DNA of 64,000 bases from Minisyncoccota bacterium (GTDB lineage Bacteria; Patescibacteriota; Minisyncoccia; UBA6257; GWB1-50-10). Shown in pieces: positions 2,609-31,562 of this stretch; positions within the stretch are counted from its first letter, which is position 1; each line of letters starts with the position of its first letter. Below the pieces are notes generated by a model. The model searched no databases. It saw only the letters and a program-made list of their open reading frames with translations, and was not told the DNA's origin. Both the position numbers and the translations under genes were made by a program. The stretch covers positions 27,566 to 91,565 of the forward strand of contig JAGVBU010000002.1 of assembly GCA_020059585.1 (NCBI GenBank), in the 5' to 3' direction.

Positions 2609-3730
2609 ATGTATAAAGTTCGATTCGTAAATCCGCAAAAACAGTTCGCGGACCACAAGGAAGAATATATGGGGGCAGTCGAGCAGGTCTTTTCGCAGGG
2701 AAATCTCATTATGCGACAGGATCTTAAGGATTTTGAGGAGTCGATTGCAAAATTTGTCGGCGTGAAGCACGCAATCGGCGTGAATTCGGGAACGTCAGCA
2801 ATCTATCTCTCTCTTAAAGCGGCGGGAATCGGCCCCGGCGACGAGGTCATCACGGTCGCGCACACATTTATCGCAAGCATTTCATGCGTCTATCTTGTAG
2901 GCGCCACTCCAGTCCTTGTCGACGTTGGAGAAGATTTCAACATCAATCCCGACCTTATTGAGGCGGCGATCACGCCCAAAACAAAGGCAATCGAGGTGGT
3001 GCACCTCAACGGGCGCATTTGCGACATGGACCGCGTGCAGGATATCGCGAAAAAGCACAACCTCATCATTATTGAGGACGCGGCGCAGGCAATGGGAGCA
3101 ACCTACACAACGAGAGACGGCTCCGTGAAGAAGGCGGGGTCATTCGGGCTTACGGGATGTTTTAGTTTGTATCCCTTCAAGGCGCTCGGCGCGTTCGGAA
3201 ATTCGGGAATTATCACGACAGACGACGATGCCATCGCAAAAAAGCTTATGCTCCTCCGTTACAACGGGGAGGACAGGGAAACGCGCTTTTTCTCCTATCA
3301 CAGCCATAATATGCTTATGGACAACGTGCAGGCGGCACTTTTGAACGTGAAAATGAAATACTTTCCTAAATGGATAGAGCGCCGACGGGAGATTGCGAAT
3401 CTCTATTATGAGGGATTGAAAGACGTGCCTCAGGTGAAACTCCCCCACTTCGACGACAATCGATATTACGATATTTATACGAACTACGCGGTGCGCGCGG
3501 AACGTCGTGATGAATTGAAAAAATATTTTGACGACAATGAGCTTGTCGAGACCATCATTTCGTGGCCAATTCCGATGTACAAGCAGACCGCAATGCTCCC
3601 GAACGACTATTTTCTTCTGGAAACGGAAAAAATCTGCACGGAAATCATCTCGCTCCCGATGTATCCCGAACTCACGAACGAGGACGCGCAAAACGTCATT
3701 GACGCGATAAAAACGTTCTATACAAAATAG
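2609..3730 (+). CDS. DegT/DnrJ/EryC1/StrS-family PLP-dependent sugar aminotransferase (PglE-like).
   Basis: Family-typical blocks: GVNSGTSAIYLSLKAAGIGPGDEVITVAHTFIAS, IIEDAAQAMGA, SFGLTGCFSLYPFKALGAFGNSG. The start could instead be 2573 or 2669. Confidence 0.85.
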   Translation: MYKVRFVNPQKQFADHKEEYMGAVEQVFSQGNLIMRQDLKDFEESIAKFVGVKHAIGVNSGTSAIYLSLKAAGIGPGDEVITVAHTFIASISCVYLVGATPVLVDVGEDFNINPDLIEAAITPKTKAIEVVHLNGRICDMDRVQDIAKKHNLIIIEDAAQAMGATYTTRDGSVKKAGSFGLTGCFSLYPFKALGAFGNSGIITTDDDAIAKKLMLLRYNGEDRETRFFSYHSHNMLMDNVQAALLNVKMKYFPKWIERRREIANLYYEGLKDVPQVKLPHFDDNRYYDIYTNYAVRAERRDELKKYFDDNELVETIISWPIPMYKQTAMLPNDYFLLETEKICTEIISLPMYPELTNEDAQNVIDAIKTFYTK

Positions 3731-6858: not shown

Positions 6859-9800
6859 TTAGTAAGAGAGAGTCGCGCCGTCAACCGGGTATGAATCTGA
6901 AGCAGAGTTGCTTCCGAATTCCGTACCTGTGGTTGCCTGCGTGTAGCGATACACTACGCCACCGGTGTTCCAGTAGTATTCTGGTCCGGTTGAGCCATCG
7001 GTCGAAAGGTATCCTTTCGTGCCGTCAACCTTGAGCGAAAGTGTCGTGTTCGTGGTTCCCGCATTCGAGACCGCAGACTCGATGTTCGAGGTGTCGGCCT
7101 TCACGGTGTAAGTCTTTGAAGAGTTTGCACCGATTTCCTGCGTTACCCACGCGCCTGACGTTGACGCAAAGGTGACAGTCGCCGTTGAGGATGCCGTCAC
7201 ACCGTATCCGTAGATCGTCGTCGCCGCTGACGTTGCAACCAACTGGTCTGCTTCGTCATAGAGGCGGAAGTTCGTTACGGAGCTCGATGAACTCGGGCTA
7301 AGGCTCAAGCTCGCTACGACCGCGAAGGACTCAAGCGTAAGCGTGCGTCCTCCTGCCGGAGCGGAGTTTGCGATTGTGAATTTACCCACTACGTCCGTTG
7401 ACTGTCCGATCTTTCCGGTCGCGTTTGAAAGCGCGTTCGTAATGGTCGGCGCCGCGTCATGGAAGAGGAAGTAGTTCGAGGTTGAGCTCGAAGTTACCGT
7501 GATGCTTCCCTCAGCCAACTGGCCTTGTGAAGAATATACTTCCATATCGTCCGTTGATGAGCTGTTCACCATGACCGCCACTACCGACGTCGGTTCGAGA
7601 ATTCCCGATCCGCTTACGTCAGCCTTGAGGGTCAAGACCTTCTGCTGGCTCTGCGGCAAGGTGACATACTTTGACGAGTCGAGTGCAAAGAGCACTTTTC
7701 CGGTCACCGAGTTCACGCTTGCTGACTGGAGCAACGTTGATCCGTCATAGAGATACACCATCGCAAAGTTCGGCGCGGTTGACGTTGCCGTCTTCCATGT
7801 CGAGCTCGCTGACAAGAGCTGAAGCGTGATTTTTCTCAATTCGAGATCCTCGTTCGATGCTTCAAGACGAATCTTGTTCAATTCAACACCGGTCTGTCCC
7901 GCGAGCACTATCTTTGAGGTCGGCTTCGAAGAGTCGGCCGCAATCGTGAGGCTCGGAGCCTTTACGGTGATTGATTGAAGCGCAAGTGCCGCTGACGGCG
8001 TGGATTCAAGTGACTTCGATGAAGACACTCCGTATCCACTCACGCCCGCTGACGCAACGCTCGCATAGAACGAATCGTTTTCGGTCGCTGAGGAGAGCAC
8101 ATCCGCGTAGAGCGAGAGTACTTTCGACTGCGACTTCGCGATCGTCAGGTTTAACGTGAAGCTGTTCGAGCTCGCCGAAGGCGTGCCGATGGTCGATCCG
8201 AGCTGAGTCGCACCGTCCATAAGCTTCATGTTCTGGATGTATGAGCTTGACGCAACATCAAAGCTGATGGTGTTCACTCTCACATCATCCGCTGACGAGG
8301 CCTGAAGAACGAATTCTCCAATCTTGACGTTCGTCGCGCTCTTTGCACGGTTCGTATTCGCGAACGCGGCATTCTTCGTGACGGTCAAGGTTACATCGCC
8401 AACCGTGATCTGATTTCCCGAATAGACACTGTCCGCGAGATAGGTGAAGTCATTCGTCGAGTAACGCTTCGTGTAGAAACGACCAACCTTTGCGGTATAG
8501 TCGTCCGTTGACGCCGCGCTTGACGAGATGGTTCCCGTTACCTCGATGGTCTTCGTCGCACCCGCTTCAACATTGATGTATGAAGAGAGGTTGTGAAGAT
8601 ACGTGTCCAACGTTGATGTCGTCACTGATGACGTTGCCTGAAGTCCGGTCGTGTCTGCTGAGATTGACAAGTAGGTTTCCCCAGTCGTCGCATCTTTTAC
8701 GTTCACGGTTCCGGTGAGTGCCTTTGCTCCGCTCGTGGTGTCATAGCTGATCTGAAGACCAATTTTGCGGATCTCAAGCTTCTCTCCTGCTGACTTCAAG
8801 TCGAATTTCGCAAGCACCACATTCTGTGAAGAGGGCGCTACGCTTCCGCTCGGGCTTCCTGCCGCCTTTGAGATGGTAAGAAGTCCTGACTTTACCTTGA
8901 AGTAGCCATTCGTGTTCTGCGTGTCCGACTGCGTGAGTTCGTTTCCAGACGAATCTTTCGGCTGGATCGCGCCTCCCGTCGTGACACCCTTCACGACCAC
9001 ATCGTAGTCGTTCTGGATTGACAAACGCGTGTAGTATCCGGATCCATCAACCACGTCCGCCTTGACCGTGAGGGTCTTTGAGAGTCCCTTGTCGATCGTG
9101 TACGGGGTGGTGAGAACGAAGGTCACATAGCGATCCACCGATTTCTCAGTGGTTGCCAACACGTTTCCTTCCGGCGAATACAATTTCCAATTCTTGAAGT
9201 CGGTGTCCCGAATCGTTCCCTCCGCATAGAGAGTGATCTTTTCGAGTCTGATCGCTTCCTTGGAATTGTTCTGGTTCAACTGGACCTTGAATATTTCGCG
9301 GTCAGTCTGGCCAACTTCGATGTTTCCGTCACCAGTCGTCACAGAAAGACCTGAGACGGCCTGGTCATCGATGCGCACATCTCCGAGCGATGCGCTTCCG
9401 TCAACAAGCGTGAACGTGGTGCCTGATACGGGGAAATTTCCCTGTACCGGAACGCTGTTCGACACCGTGACATCCGACGCCGACGCAACGGAGAAGTTCA
9501 CTGTTCCGCTCGTCACCGCCGAGTCAATGTTGATTGCAACATAGACATTCTTTGACTGTCCGGCACCAAGAACGATCGGTGATCCACTAAACGAGATCAA
9601 CGCCTTTCCGTCCGCCGTCAAAGCCGTGATGATGTTCCCATAGCGGGTTCCCGCATCATCCCAGAGGCTCACGCCAGTGATCTTGGTGTTCGCGACATAG
9701 CCGCCACGGGTTACCGTGACGCCCGTCACTGTTGCACCATCCTTCCCTGCCGTAAGTTTGAGCGTCAACACTTTGTTGTAAAGTGATCCGCTCGGGAGAC

Positions 9801-23656: not shown

Positions 23657-23822
23657 TATCTACCTCCCTAATAAATTTTTTAAATGCGTATTGAATTGCT
23701 GTTATAATAATATAACATTTTATGCATTCTGTCAATATATTGTATGCCCGATGGGGATCGCCAAACGCATTGCTTCAGGGCACCCGAAACAAAAAAACGC
23801 CTGCAGCGTTTTTCGTTTTAAC

Positions 23823-23895
23823 GGGTGCCTAACGGGAATTGAACCCGTGTCATCCGCTCCACAGGCGGATGCTCTACCATTGAGCTATAGGCACC
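23823..23895 (-). tRNA. tRNA-His (anticodon GUG).
   Basis: Hand-folded cloverleaf. Anticodon loop CTGTGGA. Encoded extra 5' G(-1) pairing with discriminator C73, the tRNA-His identity element. T-arm ACGGG-TTCAATT-CCCGT. No encoded CCA. Confidence 0.85.
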
Positions 23896-26434: not shown

Positions 26435-26767
26435 TCAACTCTTCATCGCGTTTATCTTCGCCGCCATAATAAAATCATTTTCCGAGAGTCCTCCAATCGC
26501 ATGGGTTGAGAGCTCTATAATCACGTTTTTGTACGAGACAAGATGAATATCGGGGTGGTGTCCCTCTTCTTCCGCAATTTTCCCCACGGCGTTTACAAAC
26601 GAGAGTGCCGCGGCAAAATCAGAATTTTCAAATGTATGTATTATCTTCTTTCCGTCATCACTCATCTCCCACCCAAGCACTCCCGCGAGATATTTCTGCG
26701 ATTCCTCTTTCGTCATGGGCTTTGCTCCCCCCTCACATGGCACGCATTTTTTATTTAATAGATCCAT
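26435..26767 (-). CDS. Pterin-4a-carbinolamine dehydratase (PCD/DCoH).
   Basis: Start at MDLLNKK. Active-site block EEGHHPDI. About 110 aa. Confidence 0.85.
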   Translation of the reverse strand: MDLLNKKCVPCEGGAKPMTKEESQKYLAGVLGWEMSDDGKKIIHTFENSDFAAALSFVNAVGKIAEEEGHHPDIHLVSYKNVIIELSTHAIGGLSENDFIMAAKINAMKS

Positions 26768-26856
26768 GGGGTAAGTATACGGTAGTAAGTAGTAAGTAGT
26801 AAGGGTTCGATTCACCCTCGTCCCGATTTTCATCGGGACTCCTCTGCGGAAATAAG

Positions 26857-26888
26857 AATCCCGCCAGTCTATAGACTGGCGGGATGAT
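26857..26888 (-). terminator. Hairpin terminator copy downstream of a degenerate tRNA-Phe 3' fragment. It is the same 24-nt stem-loop as the tRNA-Arg terminator at 28587-28610.
   Basis: cccgccagtctatagactggcggg is a perfect palindrome, followed on the minus strand by a U-rich tract. Confidence 0.6.
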
Positions 26889-27066
26889 GGTGCCGCGGGG
26901 GTGAGATCGCCCTCGACTCAAAAGAGTGCCGTCGCACTCTTTTGGTCTGGGCACCGGCTCGCGGTGCATTCTGCTGAATGCACATCGCTCCGCCGTTCGA
27001 TTCACCACGCAACGCACGCAGGTGCGTTGCTCCCGCATAAAAACCCCTGAAGGGGTTTTTATTTTG
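26889..27066 (-). repeat. Palindrome-rich element of about 175 bp. It begins with a 15-nt copy of the tRNA-Phe 3' end and is related to the repeats downstream of tRNA-Arg.
   Basis: gtgccgcgggggtga is present at 26890 and at 27066. Shares the ctgggcaccgSctcgcgKtgcat motif and the gcattctgctgaatgca palindrome with the 28069-28618 units. Confidence 0.65.
27039..27065 (-). terminator. Rho-independent terminator immediately downstream of tRNA-Phe.
   Basis: aaaaacccctgaaggggtttttatttt. Confidence 0.7.
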
Positions 27067-27138
27067 TGCCGCGGGGGTGAATCGAACACCCGACACGACG
27101 CTCTTCAGGCGACTGCTCTACCACTGAGCTACCGCGGC
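27067..27138 (-). tRNA. tRNA-Phe (anticodon GAA).
   Basis: Hand-folded cloverleaf. Acceptor GCCGCGG/CCGCGGC. D-arm GCTC-AGTGGTA-GAGC. Anticodon loop CTGAAGA, with one U·U mismatch in the anticodon stem. T-arm GGGTG-TTCGATT-CACCC. Discriminator A. No encoded CCA. Confidence 0.8.
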
Positions 27139-27291
27139 GAATGGTGAGGAAAAGAATATATGTAATATATTGTTTTCGAACCGTGATGCCGAGGAATATT
27201 GCGTAAAACGCGCACCCCGCGACATCTCTGTCATAACGAAGAATATCACACGAAAAATACTTTTTCAATTTGGGTCGACACATTTATTTGC

Positions 27292-28068
27292 ATGGAATAC
27301 AATAATACCAACACAAAAAATATACCTATGCTCATCAACATTCTCACCGCAAGCATCATTGGAAGTGTCCTCGCTCTCGCGGGAGGGCTTCTTCTCCTCT
27401 GGAAAGAAAAATATATCCGAAACGCATCGCTTCTTCTTGTAAGTTTTGCCGCGGGAAGCCTTCTCGGCGCGGCGTTTTTTGATCTGCTTCCTGAAGCAAT
27501 TCACGAAGGAGGCGATCCCGCGGGAATATTCTCATTCGTACTCGGGGGAATTCTCGTGCTTTTTCTCTTTGAAAAACTCCTTAAATGGTATCATTGTCAC
27601 AATAAAGGCGTCTGCGAATACCACACCTTTTCAAGCGCGGTGCTTTTCGGTGATACCGTACACAATTTCATCGATGGAATCATCATCGCCCTCAGTTTCG
27701 GGCTTGGTGTGGAAATAGGCATCGCAACCACTATCGCGGTATTTCTCCATGAAATTCCTCAGGAGATAGGAGACTTTGGAGTGCTCCTCCACGCGGGATG
27801 GGAAAAGAAAAAAATCATTCTCGTGAATCTCGGCACCGCACTCGCCACCATCCTTGGAGGAATCCTCGGATATATCGCGCTTCCCTACGTATCTTCATTT
27901 CTTCCTCACCTCATAGGATTCGCCGCGGGAACATTTATCTATATCGCCGTGTCCGATCTTATGCCGGAACTCCGCCACGAGTCGAAACCGAAAGAGTTCG
28001 CTCATTTTTTCACCATTCTTCTCGGAATTCTCACTATTGTCGCCATCGGATCTTTCTTTGATCATTAA
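27292..28068 (+). CDS. zupT: ZIP-family zinc transporter (ZupT-like).
   Basis: 8 TM segments. ZIP signature HNFIDG...HEIPQEIGDF. His-rich loop WYHCHNKGVCEYH. The start could instead be 27328. Confidence 0.85.
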   Translation: MEYNNTNTKNIPMLINILTASIIGSVLALAGGLLLLWKEKYIRNASLLLVSFAAGSLLGAAFFDLLPEAIHEGGDPAGIFSFVLGGILVLFLFEKLLKWYHCHNKGVCEYHTFSSAVLFGDTVHNFIDGIIIALSFGLGVEIGIATTIAVFLHEIPQEIGDFGVLLHAGWEKKKIILVNLGTALATILGGILGYIALPYVSSFLPHLIGFAAGTFIYIAVSDLMPELRHESKPKEFAHFFTILLGILTIVAIGSFFDH

Positions 28069-28618
28069 GGCCCTTGCGCGCAAAACAATTTTTTGCCCTC
28101 GCCTCTCAGTCGCGCCGACGCGCTCTTTCGGGCTGGGCACCGCCTCGCGTGCATGTCTTCTGACACGCACTGGCTCCGGCGTACAAAATAGAACGCGAGA
28201 CAAATAATTGTCTCGCTTATGCGGCTTACGCCGCATTCTATTTTGTACCCCCGGCAGGAAAAAGGAATCGCCTACAAGTTCCTCCTCGTCGTCACTCGTC
28301 GGACTCGCAGGCCGCCGCTCGCCATGCATTCTGCTGAATGCATATGGCTGCGCGCTTCGATTCCTGCCCGCAAAACAATTGTTTTGCTTGGGGATACGAT
28401 AAAACACACAAAATTGTGTGTTTTATTTTCGTACCCCCGGCAGGAATCGGCTCCGACTAAAATTTTCACCGTCGTGAAAATTTTGTCTAGCCGCCGCCTC
28501 GCTCCCACGCCTACTGGCGTGGGTCCCGCTCCGGCGTTCGATTCCGCACGCAAGCAAATACTTTTGCTTGCTCGGGGGAAACAAATCCCGCCAGTCTATA
28601 GACTGGCGGGATGATTTG
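28069..28618. repeat. Tandem array of three roughly 186-bp palindrome-rich units. The second and third units each begin (in tRNA sense) with a 15-19 nt copy of the tRNA-Arg 3' end.
   Basis: gtacccccggcagga occurs at 28245, 28431 and 28618, with a period of 186-187 bp. Each unit holds 3-4 perfect hairpins. Confidence 0.75.
28578..28612 (-). terminator. Rho-independent terminator of tRNA-Arg.
   Basis: Minus strand, directly after the tRNA 3' end: cccgccagtc-tata-gactggcggg followed by atttgttt. Confidence 0.7.
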
Positions 28619-28690
28619 TACCCCCGGCAGGAATCGAACCCGCATCAAGGCCTTAGAAGAGCCCTGCACTATCCATTGTGCTACGGGGGC
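28619..28690 (-). tRNA. tRNA-Arg (anticodon UCU).
   Basis: Hand-folded cloverleaf. Acceptor GCCCCCG/CGGGGGU (G1·U72). D-arm GCAC-AATGGATA-GTGC. Anticodon stem GGGCT/GGCCT (two G·U pairs) with loop CTTCTAA. T-arm GCGGG-TTCGATT-CCTGC. Confidence 0.75.
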
Positions 28691-28733
28691 GTATTTCCAC
28701 GCTAAAGAAACTCGCGTGGAAAGTCAAAAAACA

Positions 28734-29897
28734 TTATCTCAAATCCGCGTGAAACTGAGAGGCGGTTTCTTTATAGAGTTTGTCTTGAAGAACATCAACC
28801 TCATCAGACACGAGCGTGCGATCATTCGATCGATACACTACGCGAAACGTATAACTCACCTTTTCCGGACCGAATTTCTTCTCATCCTCATACGTATCGA
28901 GAAGCTGCACCTCCTCAACAAGATCCCCGCCGATATCACGGATAAGATCATAATACTGGTTCACGAAAAATCCCTTCTTCACCACAAATGAAATATCTCT
29001 CGTGATGGGAGGATATTTACTTACCTCCTTGAATTTATTTCCCAGCACAAGCTGTTTTATAACTCTCGGATCTTCCGAACGGAGAAGGCGGATATCGGGA
29101 AGCTCCATACTTATAATCGCAAGGCGCTCCGCGCCAAATCCGAACGCCCATCCGGTATATTGTTTCGGATCAACGCCGAGTTTTTCCAACACCGATTGTC
29201 TCACCATCCCTCCGCCCAAAACCTCAAGCCATTGTCCGTTTACCTCAACCTCCATCTCAACACTCGGATCTGTGTAGGGAAACGCATCCTCATTGAAACG
29301 GAATTTTATATTTTCTCCGAAAATCGATTTCGCGATCTTCCCAAGAATATTCTTCAATTCCTCGAATGGCACCTCCCTATCGCTTGTGGGATGCAAATAC
29401 CATCCGTCGATCTGATGAAACACATTCAGGTGAAAGCGATCTATTTCGTCCTTCCTGTACACCTTTCCATACGCAAGCGACCCAAGGGGAAGATTTTTTC
29501 GTATCCGTTCCTGCATCTCCTCGGACTTCACGTAGTAATACCACATTATGGTAGTATGCGTTCTCAGAATATGTTCCCCATCCACAAAATACGTATCGGA
29601 CGCGCTTCGCGCGGGATGATTCGGGGGAAAATTAAAAAGATCAAAACTCTGGTCGGCGCGGACGATTTCCGGAACCTGGATATGGTCAAAATTCTTAAAA
29701 TCAGGGATTGCAAATATTCGCGATGCCAGTTCGTGTATCGGATGACCTTTCGTGCGCGTTAAATCGGCAAGCGCGAGAAATTTCGTGAGACGCTTGCTGT
29801 CCGCGTCGTCCTTTTCCGCGCACTTCTTCCGCAAACGCGCTTCATCCGGAGAGGAAACGGATAACCGAAGCCCCGGAAGATTTTTATAGAATTCCAT
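28734..29897 (-). CDS. pheS: Phenylalanine--tRNA ligase alpha subunit.
   Basis: Class II aaRS motifs (FRVVYRSNDRTLV; GWAFGFGAERLAIIS) and the PheS signature HPARSASDTYF. Confidence 0.9.
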   Translation of the reverse strand: MEFYKNLPGLRLSVSSPDEARLRKKCAEKDDADSKRLTKFLALADLTRTKGHPIHELASRIFAIPDFKNFDHIQVPEIVRADQSFDLFNFPPNHPARSASDTYFVDGEHILRTHTTIMWYYYVKSEEMQERIRKNLPLGSLAYGKVYRKDEIDRFHLNVFHQIDGWYLHPTSDREVPFEELKNILGKIAKSIFGENIKFRFNEDAFPYTDPSVEMEVEVNGQWLEVLGGGMVRQSVLEKLGVDPKQYTGWAFGFGAERLAIISMELPDIRLLRSEDPRVIKQLVLGNKFKEVSKYPPITRDISFVVKKGFFVNQYYDLIRDIGGDLVEEVQLLDTYEDEKKFGPEKVSYTFRVVYRSNDRTLVSDEVDVLQDKLYKETASQFHADLR

Positions 29898-30060
29898 ATT
29901 AAAACAAAAACCCTTCTTTCTGAGGGGTTCAACGAGACAAACTATGACGAAAAACCCCCGATTGATCAGGTAAAGAAAAATCTAAAGAATTTTTTTGCGA
30001 CTTTTTTCATTACCCAATTAGTGTACTCTATCGCATTAAAACTTCAAGAAGCGTTTTACC

Positions 30061-30090
30061 TTGCACGAAACCGCTCTTTTCTGGTAGTAT
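30061..30090 (+). promoter_or_regulatory. Sigma70-like promoter for the tRNA-Met gene.
   Basis: TTGCAC-N18-TAGTAT, ending 5 nt upstream of the mature tRNA 5' end. Confidence 0.5.
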
Positions 30091-30095
30091 GGTTC

Positions 30096-30169
30096 CGCGG
30101 GGTAGAGCAGTCCGGTAGCTCGCAAGGCTCATAACCTTGAGGTCGTTGGTTCGAATCCAACCCCCGCAA
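30096..30169 (+). tRNA. tRNA-Met (anticodon CAU); initiator-like C1·A72 acceptor mismatch.
   Basis: Acceptor CGCGGGG/CCCCGCA. D-arm GAGC-AGTCCGGTA-GCTC. Anticodon stem CAAGG/CCTTG with loop CTCATAA. T-arm GTTGG-TTCGAAT-CCAAC. A hairpin terminator follows at 30176-30210. Confidence 0.8.
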
Positions 30170-30256
30170 CAATAATCACACGCCTCTCAAGAAATTGAGA
30201 GGCGTGTGTTGTATAATTGACGCAAAACAGCGATTCGCATACCATAGAAAATATAT

Positions 30257-30330
30257 GCCAGGGTAGCTCAATCGGTTAGAGCACAGCACTCATAAAGCTG
30301 AGGTTGCGAGTTCGATTCTCGCCCCTGGTA
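30257..30330 (+). tRNA. Second CAU-anticodon tRNA (elongator Met or lysidine-modified tRNA-Ile2).
   Basis: Acceptor GCCAGGG/CCCTGGT (G·U). D-arm GCTC-AATCGGTTA-GAGC. Anticodon loop CTCATAA. T-arm GCGAG-TTCGATT-CTCGC. Confidence 0.75.
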
Positions 30331-30378
30331 CAAAAAGAACCTCTGTTTTGGTATAATATAGCCACAGGGCTGTTTTTT

Positions 30379-31059
30379 ATGGCAAAAACAAAAGAAAAAA
30401 ATGTAGCCACTTCCCTAAGAAGAAAAGGGATGAGTATAAAGGATATTTCGAAGACTCTTCATGTTTCAAGGAGTTCGGTGAGTGTGTGGTGTTCCAACAT
30501 ATTACTCACAAAGAAGCAAGAGGAATCTTTAAGAGAAAAGATGATATCAGCAGGACACAAGGGAAGATTATTGGGGGCAGAAAAGCAAAAAAAGAAGAGG
30601 GAAGAAATTATACAAAAATATAAAGAAGAGGGGTTAAAAAATATACAAGATATAGATTCTAGAGATCTTTTAATGATTGGGATAGGACTCTATCTTGGTG
30701 AGGGAAATAAAACGGGAAATAAGTTTCAATTCACTAATTCAAATCCTGATATAATTTGTATCATGCTTTTATGGCTTACGAAAATATTTAAAATAAAGAA
30801 AAGCCACATTGTGCTCAACGTCCTTATTAATGGAATCCACGTAAAGAGAGAGCTACGCGTTCGTCGTTTTTGGTCACAAATCACGAATATACCAGAAAAA
30901 CAATTCAATAAAACAATTTTTATAAAATCCAAGAACAAAAAAATGTATGAAAATTTTTCAAATCATTTCGGCACTCTCGTGATCAGGGTGAGAAAAAGTT
31001 CTCTCCTCCAATATAAGATTTTAGGACTTTGTCATGCATCAATAAAAAATACGATATGA
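30379..31059 (+). CDS. AT-rich ORF with an N-terminal helix-turn-helix and a LAGLIDADG-like motif; a possible homing-endonuclease-type selfish gene.
   Basis: HTH-like MSIKDISKTLHVSRSSVSVW. The motif LLMIGIGLYLGEGNKTG resembles the LAGLIDADG (L-x-G-L-Y-L-G-D-G) class. Strongly AT- and Lys-rich relative to its flanks. Confidence 0.5.
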   Translation: MAKTKEKNVATSLRRKGMSIKDISKTLHVSRSSVSVWCSNILLTKKQEESLREKMISAGHKGRLLGAEKQKKKREEIIQKYKEEGLKNIQDIDSRDLLMIGIGLYLGEGNKTGNKFQFTNSNPDIICIMLLWLTKIFKIKKSHIVLNVLINGIHVKRELRVRRFWSQITNIPEKQFNKTIFIKSKNKKMYENFSNHFGTLVIRVRKSSLLQYKILGLCHASIKNTI

Positions 31060-31110
31060 AATCGTATTGCAAAACAGAATAAGCGTTGATACACTAAATT
31101 CGCTATGTTT

Positions 31111-31184
31111 GCGGGCGTAGCTCAGCTGGTTAGAGCGATTGCCTGTCACGCAATAGGTCGCCGGTTCGAGTCCGGTCGCCCGCG
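31111..31184 (+). tRNA. tRNA-Asp (anticodon GUC).
   Basis: Acceptor GCGGGCG/CGCCCGC. D-arm GCTC-AGCTGGTTA-GAGC. Anticodon stem ATTGC/GCAAT with loop CTGTCAC. T-arm GCCGG-TTCGAGT-CCGGT. Discriminator G. Confidence 0.85.
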
Positions 31185-31188
31185 CAAG

Positions 31189-31219
31189 AAAAACATCCAT
31201 AATACGGATGTTTTTTGTT
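31189..31219 (+). terminator. Rho-independent terminator of tRNA-Asp.
   Basis: aaaaacatccataatacggatgttttttgtt. Confidence 0.7.
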
Positions 31220-31312
31220 ACCGGACTTGAACGGGAAAGGGCGGTGGGAAAACGGGAGTTTTCCCAAGGCGGATAACATAAACCGATGGGTTTGTGAGAG
31301 TTTTGAAAAAAC

Positions 31313-31372
31313 GACGTTCGATTCCGTCGCCCGCGCAAAAAAAAACATCCATTATGTGGATGTTTTTTGTTA
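31313..31372 (+). repeat. Direct duplicate of the last 23 nt of tRNA-Asp (T-loop plus acceptor 3' strand), followed by a second copy of its terminator.
   Basis: cgttcgattccgtcgcccgcgca, then aaaaacatccattatgtggatgttttttgttacc. Compare 31162-31222. Confidence 0.7.
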
Positions 31373-31562
31373 CCGTATTTGAACGAGGAGTGAATTCTTG
31401 TTTGAAAAAAGCAGAAAATCGAGTAAAGTCATAGATATGAATCCCGTTAGAAACCGCGATCGCGGGGACATATAAGCACTCTATTAAACGAACGTATATG
31501 TCAGTCGAAACAAAAACAAATCACATAATGGATCGTTTGATTGCGGTCTGTTTCTAAATGGG

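Follow-up and report, generated by a model that had tools for sequence, protein, structure and literature searches.

A tandem array of tRNA-linked repeat modules behind tRNA-Arg in a Minisyncoccota bacterium, and a candidate family of structured RNAs

What is the array of hairpin-rich repeats that follows the tRNA-Arg(UCU) gene of a Minisyncoccota bacterium? We analyzed a stretch of 64,000 nucleotides (64 kb; the window) of contig JAGVBU010000002.1, in which the array lies downstream of tRNA-Arg and reaches the stop codon region of the convergent ZIP-transporter gene zupT. The array is genuine, and is neither a scar of attachment (att) sites, nor a CRISPR array, nor a chance repeat. It is best read as three tRNA-linked repeat modules that are genes, or gene remnants, for a structured RNA of ~150 nt.

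The original prediction described units that each re-start with the tRNA 3' end. The repeat proved exact: the 15-mer GTACCCCCGGCAGGA occurs at 28245, 28431, and 28618 on the plus strand, spaced by 186 and 187 nt (chance expectation, ~0.02 matches at ≤2 mismatches; observed count reached by no shuffle), and the repeat around it lengthens to 22 nt with 82 to 100% identity. Its orientation had to be reversed, however, as the tRNA is encoded on the minus strand, and each copy-bearing unit ends with the last 15 to 19 nt of the tRNA in tRNA orientation. Read along the tRNA strand, the order is tRNA-Arg, a palindrome, unit A, an AU-rich hairpin, unit B, two small hairpins, and unit C (Table 1). Tandem Repeats Finder gave no report for the array because the units are only ~60% alike. 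Units A, B, and C and a unit behind tRNA-Phe nevertheless form one family, here termed type 1. The partial third unit that had been suspected toward zupT is unit C, a family member that lacks a tRNA copy. Its closing helix is retained but is made of non-tRNA sequence, and its 5' strand GUUCUAUUUUGUAC complements the end of unit B's copy plus the spacer (inverted repeat, 20 nt, 90%). The T-loop-like sequence GTTCGATTC noticed on the plus strand is present at 28536 and, with one mismatch, at 28355, but it is really the reverse complement of minus-strand GGAAUCGAAC/G; this minus-strand counterpart (GGAAUCGAAC in unit A, GGGCAGGAAUCGAAG in unit B) is antisense to the T-loop and T-stem 3' strand of tRNA-Arg. 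Open reading frames (ORFs) over the array (for example, 28219-28614, plus strand, and 27895-28407, minus strand) were dismissed as genes because variation in the family keeps base pairs, not codons.

The family is not confined to tRNA-Arg, where the prediction had placed it. It recurs behind tRNA-Phe (26805-27045), and units of a second type stand behind tRNA-Asp; the link to tRNA 3' ends held for ~100 of 125 copies found in metagenomes (see below). Our covariance model R1 detected exactly four type-1 units in the 64 kb, all on the strand of their tRNA (81 to 140 bits), and scored at most 17.5 bits on the opposite strand. In total, tRNA-Arg carries three units, tRNA-Phe one and a fragment, and tRNA-Asp one (type 2) and a fragment that begins near 31372. 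In the unit behind tRNA-Phe, the antisense strand GGUGAAUCGAAC and the 3' copy cgatctcacccccgcggcac match tRNA-Phe and not tRNA-Arg, and 20 of 21 nt of the tRNA-Phe 3' end are present. The type-2 family was also found in seven other loci (L002-L004, L007, L041, L027, and L035). ARAGORN called six tRNAs only and no unit as a tRNA or tmRNA, and Rfam models at E ≤10 gave only chance-level matches within the units (ncr1175, miRNA models, and similar).

To examine the fold, we aligned 70 diverse units (A1). Between variable helices stand unpaired stretches that are nearly invariant (GAAC, CGGAGCG, GCGAG, GGUGCCCAG, and AGUCGnGGG). RNAalifold placed a hairpin H1, a helix P3/H2 with an invariant GGA/GA internal loop, and a helix P4/H3 with a GACG loop; 30 of these 33 pairs show compensatory changes. 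These helices were combined with a closing helix P2 (antisense strand with 3' copy) and a helix P1 (acceptor complement with acceptor 3' strand) into a 50-pair structure, in which 45 pairs show compensatory changes and 82.5% of cells are paired (37 to 42% in slid controls); its covariation score was 0.561 (slid controls, 0.11 to 0.15), a value reached by 0 of 500 shuffles. Furthermore, minimum-free-energy folds of units A and B and of the tRNA-Phe unit gave the same architecture, with P1, H1, P2, P3, and P4 all visible in unit A, and were far more stable than those of shuffled sequences (fold z = -8.2, -6.2, and -6.6, respectively). The palindromes listed in the prediction are all present, and both its description of units built of hairpins and the conserved secondary structure that it proposed to look for were confirmed. 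The core family has no counterpart in Rfam 15 and is a candidate new RNA family.

Which strand is functional? Both strands fold with equal energy, and energy therefore does not identify the strand. The helices are not symmetrical, however, in the mismatches that they tolerate: G·A outnumbered C·U by 61 to 10 and G:U outnumbered A·C by 60 to 37 (tallied from the RNAalifold alignment). Tandem G·A alternates with Watson-Crick pairs in H2, H3, and P2, and in seven units a change of UC to GA in the antisense strand gives tandem G·A opposite G57 A58 of the T-loop. Together with the one-sided scores of the covariance model, these features indicate a folded single strand of tRNA polarity, which would most simply be RNA.

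We also asked whether each unit matches the tRNA that it follows. Past position 61, the exact complement of the antisense strand had a mean length of 3.84 nt when the unit was compared with its own tRNA and of 1.71 nt when it was compared with other isotypes. On the 5' side of H1, we found an exact complement of at least 6 nt to the last 10 nt of the tRNA in 37% of comparisons with the own tRNA versus 4.3% with other isotypes, and in two loci (L217 and L317) this acceptor complement extends over the discriminator and C74/C75. A unit's own 3' copy starts at C56 of the T-loop and runs to the discriminator base. Nevertheless, at all five of the five tRNAs that have the rare T-loop GTCCGA, the antisense strand reads GGAC in place of GAAC; the 5' strand therefore tracks the tRNA itself. 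This tracking might mean that the strand pairs with the tRNA or pre-tRNA, or that it is copied from the tRNA gene as units arise or undergo conversion.

The T-loop variant is an observation of its own. C replaces U at the second T-loop position (GTCCGA for GTTCGA) in the tRNA-Arg of L007 and in tRNAs of L217, L258, L264, L252, and L317. This position is normally the near-universal site of pseudouridine-55.

Table 1. Positions, strands, and scores of the units, their parts, and the tRNA genes that they follow
Feature	Position in window	Strand	Remarks
tRNA-Arg(UCU) gene	28618..28690	-	ARAGORN; Rfam tRNA 63.7 bits; last 19 nt, cgattcctgccgggggtac, are the sequence copied into the units
Terminator-like perfect palindrome ATCCCGCCAGTCTATAGACTGGCGGGAT + TTGTTT	28585..28612	-	Between tRNA-Arg and unit A
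Unit A, type 1	28431..28579	-	nhmmer E = 1.7e-34; R1 128.8 bits
Unit A, acceptor-5'-like CCCCCG	28578-28573	-	
Unit A, H1	28571-28550	-	
Unit A, antisense GGAAUCGAAC	28545-28536	-	
Unit A, 19-nt tRNA-Arg 3'-end copy	28449-28431	-	Follows three-way-junction core
AU-rich perfect hairpin ATAAAACACACAA..TTGTGTGTTTTAT	28399..28426	-	Between units A and B
Unit B, degenerate type-1 subtype	28245..28393	-	nhmmer E = 9e-28; R1 81.2 bits
Unit B, CCCC	28393-28390	-	
Unit B, H1	28387-28370	-	
Unit B, antisense GGGCAGGAAUCGAAG	28369-28355	-	
Unit B, 15-nt exact tRNA-Arg 3'-end copy	28259-28245	-	Follows core
Unit C, type 1, without tRNA copy	28061..28231	-	nhmmer E = 2.3e-18; R1 115.5 bits
Unit C, H1	28216-28195	-	
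Unit C, 5' strand GUUCUAUUUUGUAC	28194-28181	-	
Unit C, canonical core ending GAGAGGCGAGGG		-	
tRNA-Phe(GAA) gene	27066..27138	-	Terminator hairpin after it at ~27040-27061
Type-1 unit behind tRNA-Phe	26890..27035	-	nhmmer E = 5.9e-37; R1 140.4 bits
Truncated second tRNA-Phe unit	26805..26852	-	5' strand, hairpin, and antisense GGGUGAAUCGAACCC only
Type-2 unit behind tRNA-Asp (31111-31185)	31213..31339	+	nhmmer E = 5e-33; different core
Type-2 unit, antisense ACCGGACUUGAAC	31220-31232	+	
Type-2 unit, tRNA-Asp 3'-end copy	31316-31338	+	

To place the array among related genomes, we used the phenylalanyl-tRNA synthetase (PheRS) gene adjoining tRNA-Arg as a query and obtained 80 Patescibacteria loci. 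A scripted look behind every tRNA in them found downstream direct copies of the 3' end for Arg, Phe, Asp, His, Met, Lys, Pro, and Glu, along with downstream antisense copies at short, consistent distances. Upstream of the tRNAs, the same scan found no direct copy and few antisense matches, at scattered distances. A core-pattern scan of metagenomes gave 120 further loci, 106 of which held type-1 copies by nhmmer (125 copies in all). About 100 of the 125 have a same-strand tRNA upstream, nearly all at a distance of 2 to 86 nt, and these tRNAs represent 19 isotypes. In many lineages the unit begins 2 to 15 nt after the tRNA with no intervening terminator, and in two loci (L217 and L261) the tandem units are identical. 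When the genes within 2.5 kb of ~100 copies were clustered, no recombinase, transposase, reverse transcriptase, or other non-housekeeping protein was recurrent; apart from spurious ORFs that overlapped the element itself, the clusters held housekeeping proteins only (LepA, ClpB, HU, a CCA-adding-type enzyme in 5 loci, and others).

The arrays differ even between close relatives, where orthologous tRNAs carry different unit types or none. The comparison of tRNA-Arg among sister genomes, which had been suggested with the prediction, was informative in this respect: the site is empty in one relative (L003), and in another it is filled, with the same flank after the copy (L006; 78 of 86 positions identical). 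In the nearest relative (L001), tRNA-Arg is followed by a single unit in which the 5' part of unit A is joined to the 3' part of unit C, as would be expected from unequal recombination between units. Moreover, the core of unit B is almost identical to that of the unit behind tRNA-Phe in L001, while the ends differ; thus, cores are moved or converted from one tRNA locus to another. After the discriminator, the copies have the genomic base, in some cases with further flanking sequence, and not CCA, which favors duplication at the DNA level and disfavors copying from mature tRNA.

The prediction recognized no described element type here, but the same layout is known from Escherichia coli as tRNA-linked repeats (TLRs, RtT), among which are the repeats at tyrT and, behind 5S rRNA, RrA, RrB, and RrF. 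TLRs have been known since 1978, and their function and origin have no accepted account (PMC8144298). The K-12 strain has 22 of them at ten loci, one to five at each, in tRNA or rRNA operons, and each contains 18 to 19 bp identical to the 3' end of the upstream gene (PMC8144298). Three that stand behind 5S rRNA are transcribed when a first terminator is read through, are processed, and bind Hfq and CsrA in vitro, and the 3' repeat of TLRs has been proposed as a processing signal (PMC8144298). We retrieved the E. coli tyrT locus (178-bp repeats) for comparison, where the Rfam model RtT (RF00391) matched four units with 133 to 138 bits. Each tyrT unit starts with GGGGAAGGAU(GAGAAG), the complement of tRNA-Tyr UUCGAAUCCUUCCCC with a UC-to-GA change, and ends with the 19-nt 3' end of tRNA-Tyr, so that GGGGAAGGAU and AUCCUUCCCC form a closing stem; the rrnB unit of E. 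coli also carries GGAUUUGAAC.

The two systems are thus alike in several ways. Both lie directly downstream of a stable-RNA gene on the same strand, as all four type-1 units of the window do; both end with the end of that gene (18 to 19 nt identical in E. coli, 19 in unit A and 15 in unit B); and in both a genome has several such loci with one to five units apiece, every unit fitting its own tRNA. In both, the fold is closed by a strand at the start of the unit that complements the T-loop and the 3' strand of the T-stem, and RtT has the GGAUGAGAA variant that we saw in seven type-1 units. The order of tRNA or 5S gene, terminator, unit, and terminator is as at rrnB. In contrast, the type-1 core is a three-way junction with invariant GGUGCCCAG and AGUCGnGGG, and type-1 units have an additional acceptor-complement strand and the hairpin H1. 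They belong to the Patescibacteria and serve 19 tRNA isotypes, and they have no counterpart of the tpr ORF annotated in an E. coli unit. Searches in both directions were negative: RF00391 (gathering score, 45 bits) had no match at E ≤1 in 26500-31500 or at E ≤10 in 26780-28700, the type-1 hidden Markov model had no match at tyrT, and R1 gave only E >2 at tyrT and rrnB (L201 and L322). By sequence, then, the array can be assigned to the TLRs on their defining layout, and homology to them was not found. The finding is best filed as a much larger and better-resolved family with the TLR layout, in which the layout is known and the core is unrelated. Our literature search for tRNA-linked repeats by that name found nothing on Patescibacteria.

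This comparison matters because the E. coli layout is seen here in a very distant clade with reduced genomes, with a core that is unrelated and much more conserved. With well over a hundred copies behind 19 of 20 tRNA isotypes, variation suffices to define the conserved part, namely, a rod of tRNA 3' end and complement that closes a junction of invariant bases. The layout is either very old or has arisen twice, and under both possibilities a function or a general mechanism is favored over a peculiarity of E. coli. The tracking of the tRNA itself by the 5' strand is a concrete puzzle that is open to experiment.

We propose the following explanation. A module consists of five parts in order: a short complement of the neighboring tRNA's acceptor 3' strand; the conserved hairpin H1; a strand that complements the T-loop and the 3' strand of the T-stem of that tRNA (GGAnUCGAAC); the three-way junction with its invariant stretches and G·A-containing helices; and the tRNA 3'-end copy, from C56 to the discriminator base. 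The first and third parts pair with the fifth to give a long rod, the 3' strand of which is supplied by the sequence of the tRNA 3' end itself. Modules would be transcribed together with the tRNA, in the lineage of the window by read-through of the small terminator hairpins. The rod would mimic the acceptor/T-stem stack that is seen by RNase P, RNase Z or its equivalent, and the CCA-adding enzyme, and each module could then be excised like a tRNA by tRNA-end processing. The conserved junction would bind a partner; that this partner is specific is suggested because the junction is invariant. Arrays would gain and lose units through unequal recombination, in which the tRNA 3' end recombines with one of its copies or one homologous core with another, and cores would shift between tRNA loci by ectopic recombination, with the rod re-matched afterwards. 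Cotranscription with the tRNA, excision by tRNA-end processing, and an array size set by unequal recombination are together, in our judgment, the probable account. A structured small-RNA array cotranscribed with the tRNA was one of the readings first offered for this locus, and it is supported by the covarying fold, the strand asymmetry, and the fixed orientation.

Several points weigh against this account. We infer transcription, processing, and any function from the sequence. A terminator-like hairpin precedes each unit of the window, and expression may therefore be low; units B and C look partly decayed, with an insertion in the copy of B and no tRNA copy in C. G:U pairs are rare (~60 of ~2300 cells), and the hairpins of the window are perfect palindromes, some of them perfect to the center, so a DNA-level process may shape them too. 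No partner protein emerged from the neighbor clustering. Furthermore, the antisense strand tracks tRNA nucleotides 53 to 55, positions that are missing from the unit's own copy. That tracking suggests that the strand pairs directly with the tRNA or its gene or is templated on one of them, whereas a generic processing mimic need not match the local tRNA.

The tracking is the starting point of a different explanation, in which the bipartite 5' strand acts as a guide or switch on the cognate tRNA. It would pair with the tRNA, the pre-tRNA, or the gene, with the 3' copy as a decoy that keeps the guide closed, and could direct modification, cleavage, quality control, or priming. The units would then be programmable, self-masked guide RNAs that bring the junction core and its binder to the tRNA 3' half. 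We regard both the guide or switch and this more specific form of it as tentative possibilities that are probably wrong. Besides the covariation with nucleotides 53 to 55, the antisense strand matched the tRNA better than it matched its own copy in 56 units, equally well in 17, and worse in 6 (by a crude measure), and at tRNA-His of L001 the antisense strand agrees with the T-loop as it now is (CAAATC), whereas the copy still reads CAATTC. The reach of the complement over the discriminator and C74/C75 in L217 and L317 would also fit, as would the G·A motifs and a hairpin that splits two guide halves as in H/ACA-type guides. However, pairing with the T-arm and acceptor strand needs the mature tRNA to be unfolded, the consensus of the 70 units contains no box C/D or ACA motifs, and no associated protein appeared among the clustered neighbors. 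Moreover, unit C has kept its closing helix with non-tRNA sequence, and the tracking of nucleotides 53 to 55 could also come about through copying of the strand from the tRNA gene as a unit forms or is converted. If the units are self-masked guides, the outcome could be modification, cleavage, repair, priming, or spread by copy and insertion, and the E. coli TLRs would illustrate the same principle in degenerate form.

Could the units instead be mobile DNA? On this explanation, which we consider unlikely, they are nonautonomous miniature elements inserted at tRNA 3' ends by an enzyme encoded elsewhere, either an HUH transposase, as for the palindromic elements derived from IS200/IS605, or an integrase, and the folded form is single-stranded DNA. 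The original prediction had raised a family of miniature tRNA-targeting elements; the presence/absence polymorphism and the occurrence of one subtype at different tRNAs in sister genomes bear out this much of it, namely, turnover. Filled and empty sites with a direct target repeat, the fixed orientation to the target, and perfect palindromes with few G:U pairs are what such an element would show, and G·T and sheared G·A appositions are tolerated in DNA hairpins too. In IS200/IS605-derived palindromic elements, an internal guide pairs with the flanking target, and in the units an internal strand beside a hairpin complements the flanking target. On the other hand, transposon ends do not look like a three-way-junction core of ~100 nt with invariant junction bases, the genes within 2.5 kb of ~100 copies include no recurrent transposase or integrase, and a single enzyme would face the differing target and end sequences of 19 isotypes. 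Many copies start 2 to 15 nt after the tRNA, which implies cotranscription; tRNA-less copies have promoter-like upstream sequence; and homologous recombination alone could explain gain, loss, and copy-number change. REP/BIME sequences and the IS200/IS605-derived PATEs resemble the units in being small, hairpin-packed, intergenic, and variable in copy number, but REP and PATE have no tie to tRNA 3' ends, their own ends are constant, and they have no conserved core of several helices.

A cis-acting role within the tRNA gene, as a compound terminator, an insulator, or a replication or recombination structure, would need no released RNA at all. Terminator-like hairpins do flank every unit of the window, and a single long inverted repeat is made up of the 3' half of the tRNA together with the terminator and the antisense strand. 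Termination needs neither invariant unpaired nucleotides nor a three-way junction, however, and many lineages have no terminator between tRNA and unit, stand-alone copies exist, and close relatives lack a unit at the same tRNA, all of which make this role very unlikely.

Iterated duplication of att cores was the first mechanism that had been considered, and it is not supported in that form. Read as scars of serial integration and excision of larger tRNA-targeting islands or phages, with the repeats as leftover cores, it is now largely refuted; we give it hardly any credence. Integration is classically recognized by a tRNA 3' end that is directly repeated downstream of the tRNA, and the array resembles an attL/attR pair in having such repeats behind an intact tRNA, with filled and empty sites in relatives. 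Thus, of the features of an att-bounded element, the direct repeat and the empty site were found and an integrase was not. The intervening 150 to 190 nt are one conserved covarying family, not random remnants; the ~167 nt between repeats are conserved structured DNA with no room for a gene; and the same design, antisense strand included, stands behind 19 isotypes, so that one core serves many tRNAs, unlike in attL/attR. No recombinase recurs near the ~100 copies, and the six flanking ORFs that we scanned have ZIP transporter, PheRS, pterin dehydratase, HTH, SLT, and nucleotidyl transferase domains but no integrase domain. In viral contigs, the core 14-mer GAGGCGGTGCCCAG matched 120 loci, all by chance according to nhmmer, and no phage attP with the core was found.

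Other identities were rejected. As the prediction had stated, the array is not CRISPR-like: the repeat is a tRNA 3' end, the "spacers" share homology among themselves and with units at other tRNAs, and the six flanking ORFs include no cas domain. Box C/D (RUGAUGA, CUGA) and H/ACA guide RNAs agree with the units only in topology and G·A, their boxes being absent from the 70-unit consensus. An integron attC would have GTTRRRY cores, of which there are none; a retron noncoding RNA is contradicted by the absence of a reverse transcriptase and by the tRNA-specific ends, and an IS110 bridge RNA by the absence of a recombinase. The GGAUUCGAC of the tmRNA tRNA-like domain is not complementary to the T-loop, and ARAGORN was negative. 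Finally, a retroviral-type primer-binding site does not fit copies that carry genomic flank and not CCA. Plant mitochondrial t-elements and mascRNA-type ends, which are single tRNA-shaped modules at the ends of mRNAs or long noncoding RNAs, are comparable insofar as an acceptor/T-stem mimic helix could recruit RNase P or RNase Z; the units differ in being repeats matched to, and behind, a real tRNA, and their T-loop bases are paired, with no T-loop formed.

Among the relatives, a third core type with the same layout follows tRNA-Arg in two loci (L005, 7459-7611; L006, 1539-1704), with antisense TAGGAATCGAAC, a core ending GGGGGAGAAGGATT, and the 3' copy CCTACTCGGGGTAC. In L005 the third-type unit is followed by a type-1 unit, so one array can mix families. 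Type-1 copies without an upstream tRNA were seen at L280 (~470-700), L278 (~7780-8000), L210 (~3350-3530), and L204 (~9320-9500). They are preceded by an A-tract, promoter-like hexamers (in L280, TTGGAA, 18 nt, and TATAAT), and a shared AAAAGTTCG motif, and may be independent small-RNA genes derived from tRNA-linked ones. Of the remaining copies with no tRNA called by ARAGORN, one follows a group I intron and another a 5'-truncated tRNA match. The intron (L318, 6161-6432; 68 bits) lies just upstream of a type-1 unit and may be inside a tRNA gene that ARAGORN missed. A LOOT RNA (73 bits) was found elsewhere, on another contig (L238, 2891-3019).

Returning to the window, the 28-nt palindrome ATCCCGCCAGTCTATAGACTGGCGGGAT has identical copies behind tRNA-Arg (28585-28612) and after the tRNA-Phe unit (26858-26885). 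In variants from relatives (...TCCATGGA...), both central partners are changed and the palindrome stays perfect to its center, an upkeep that selection on an RNA hairpin alone does not predict. The truncated tRNA-Phe unit ends ~40 nt before the start codon of a pterin-4a-carbinolamine dehydratase gene (26435-26833), and between them is a tandem repeat, ACTACTT ACTACTT ACTACC (26781-26803, minus strand), to which L001 has related sequence in the same place. After the terminator of tRNA-His (23823-23894), a stub at 23770-23790 on the minus strand reads GGGTGCC, the complement of the tRNA-His 3' end GGCACCC, and then CTGAAGCAA. It looks like the remnant of a type-1 unit, and the orthologous tRNA-His of L001 has a complete one.

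A freestanding ORF of 251 amino acids between tRNA-Met and tRNA-Asp (30304-31059, plus strand) has a weak HTH_23 match and, judged by eye, resembles a LAGLIDADG-type homing endonuclease. A similar ORF stands behind tRNA-Met in L002, and another endonuclease-like ORF behind tRNA-Met in L004; the tRNA loci of these genomes attract several kinds of insert. The PheRS next to tRNA-Arg (28734-29897, minus strand) is a single chain of 387 amino acids with a class II core and a C-terminal FDX-ACB anticodon-binding domain, an arrangement that we take to recall the monomeric mitochondrial-type enzyme rather than the usual bacterial alpha2-beta2 form. Lastly, GC skew stays below zero (about -0.05 to -0.18) from ~8 kb onward through the rest of the 64 kb, such that most of the window appears to lie on one replichore with a G-rich minus strand. 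Unit-bearing tRNAs occur on both strands, and the orientation of the units therefore follows the tRNA and not replication.

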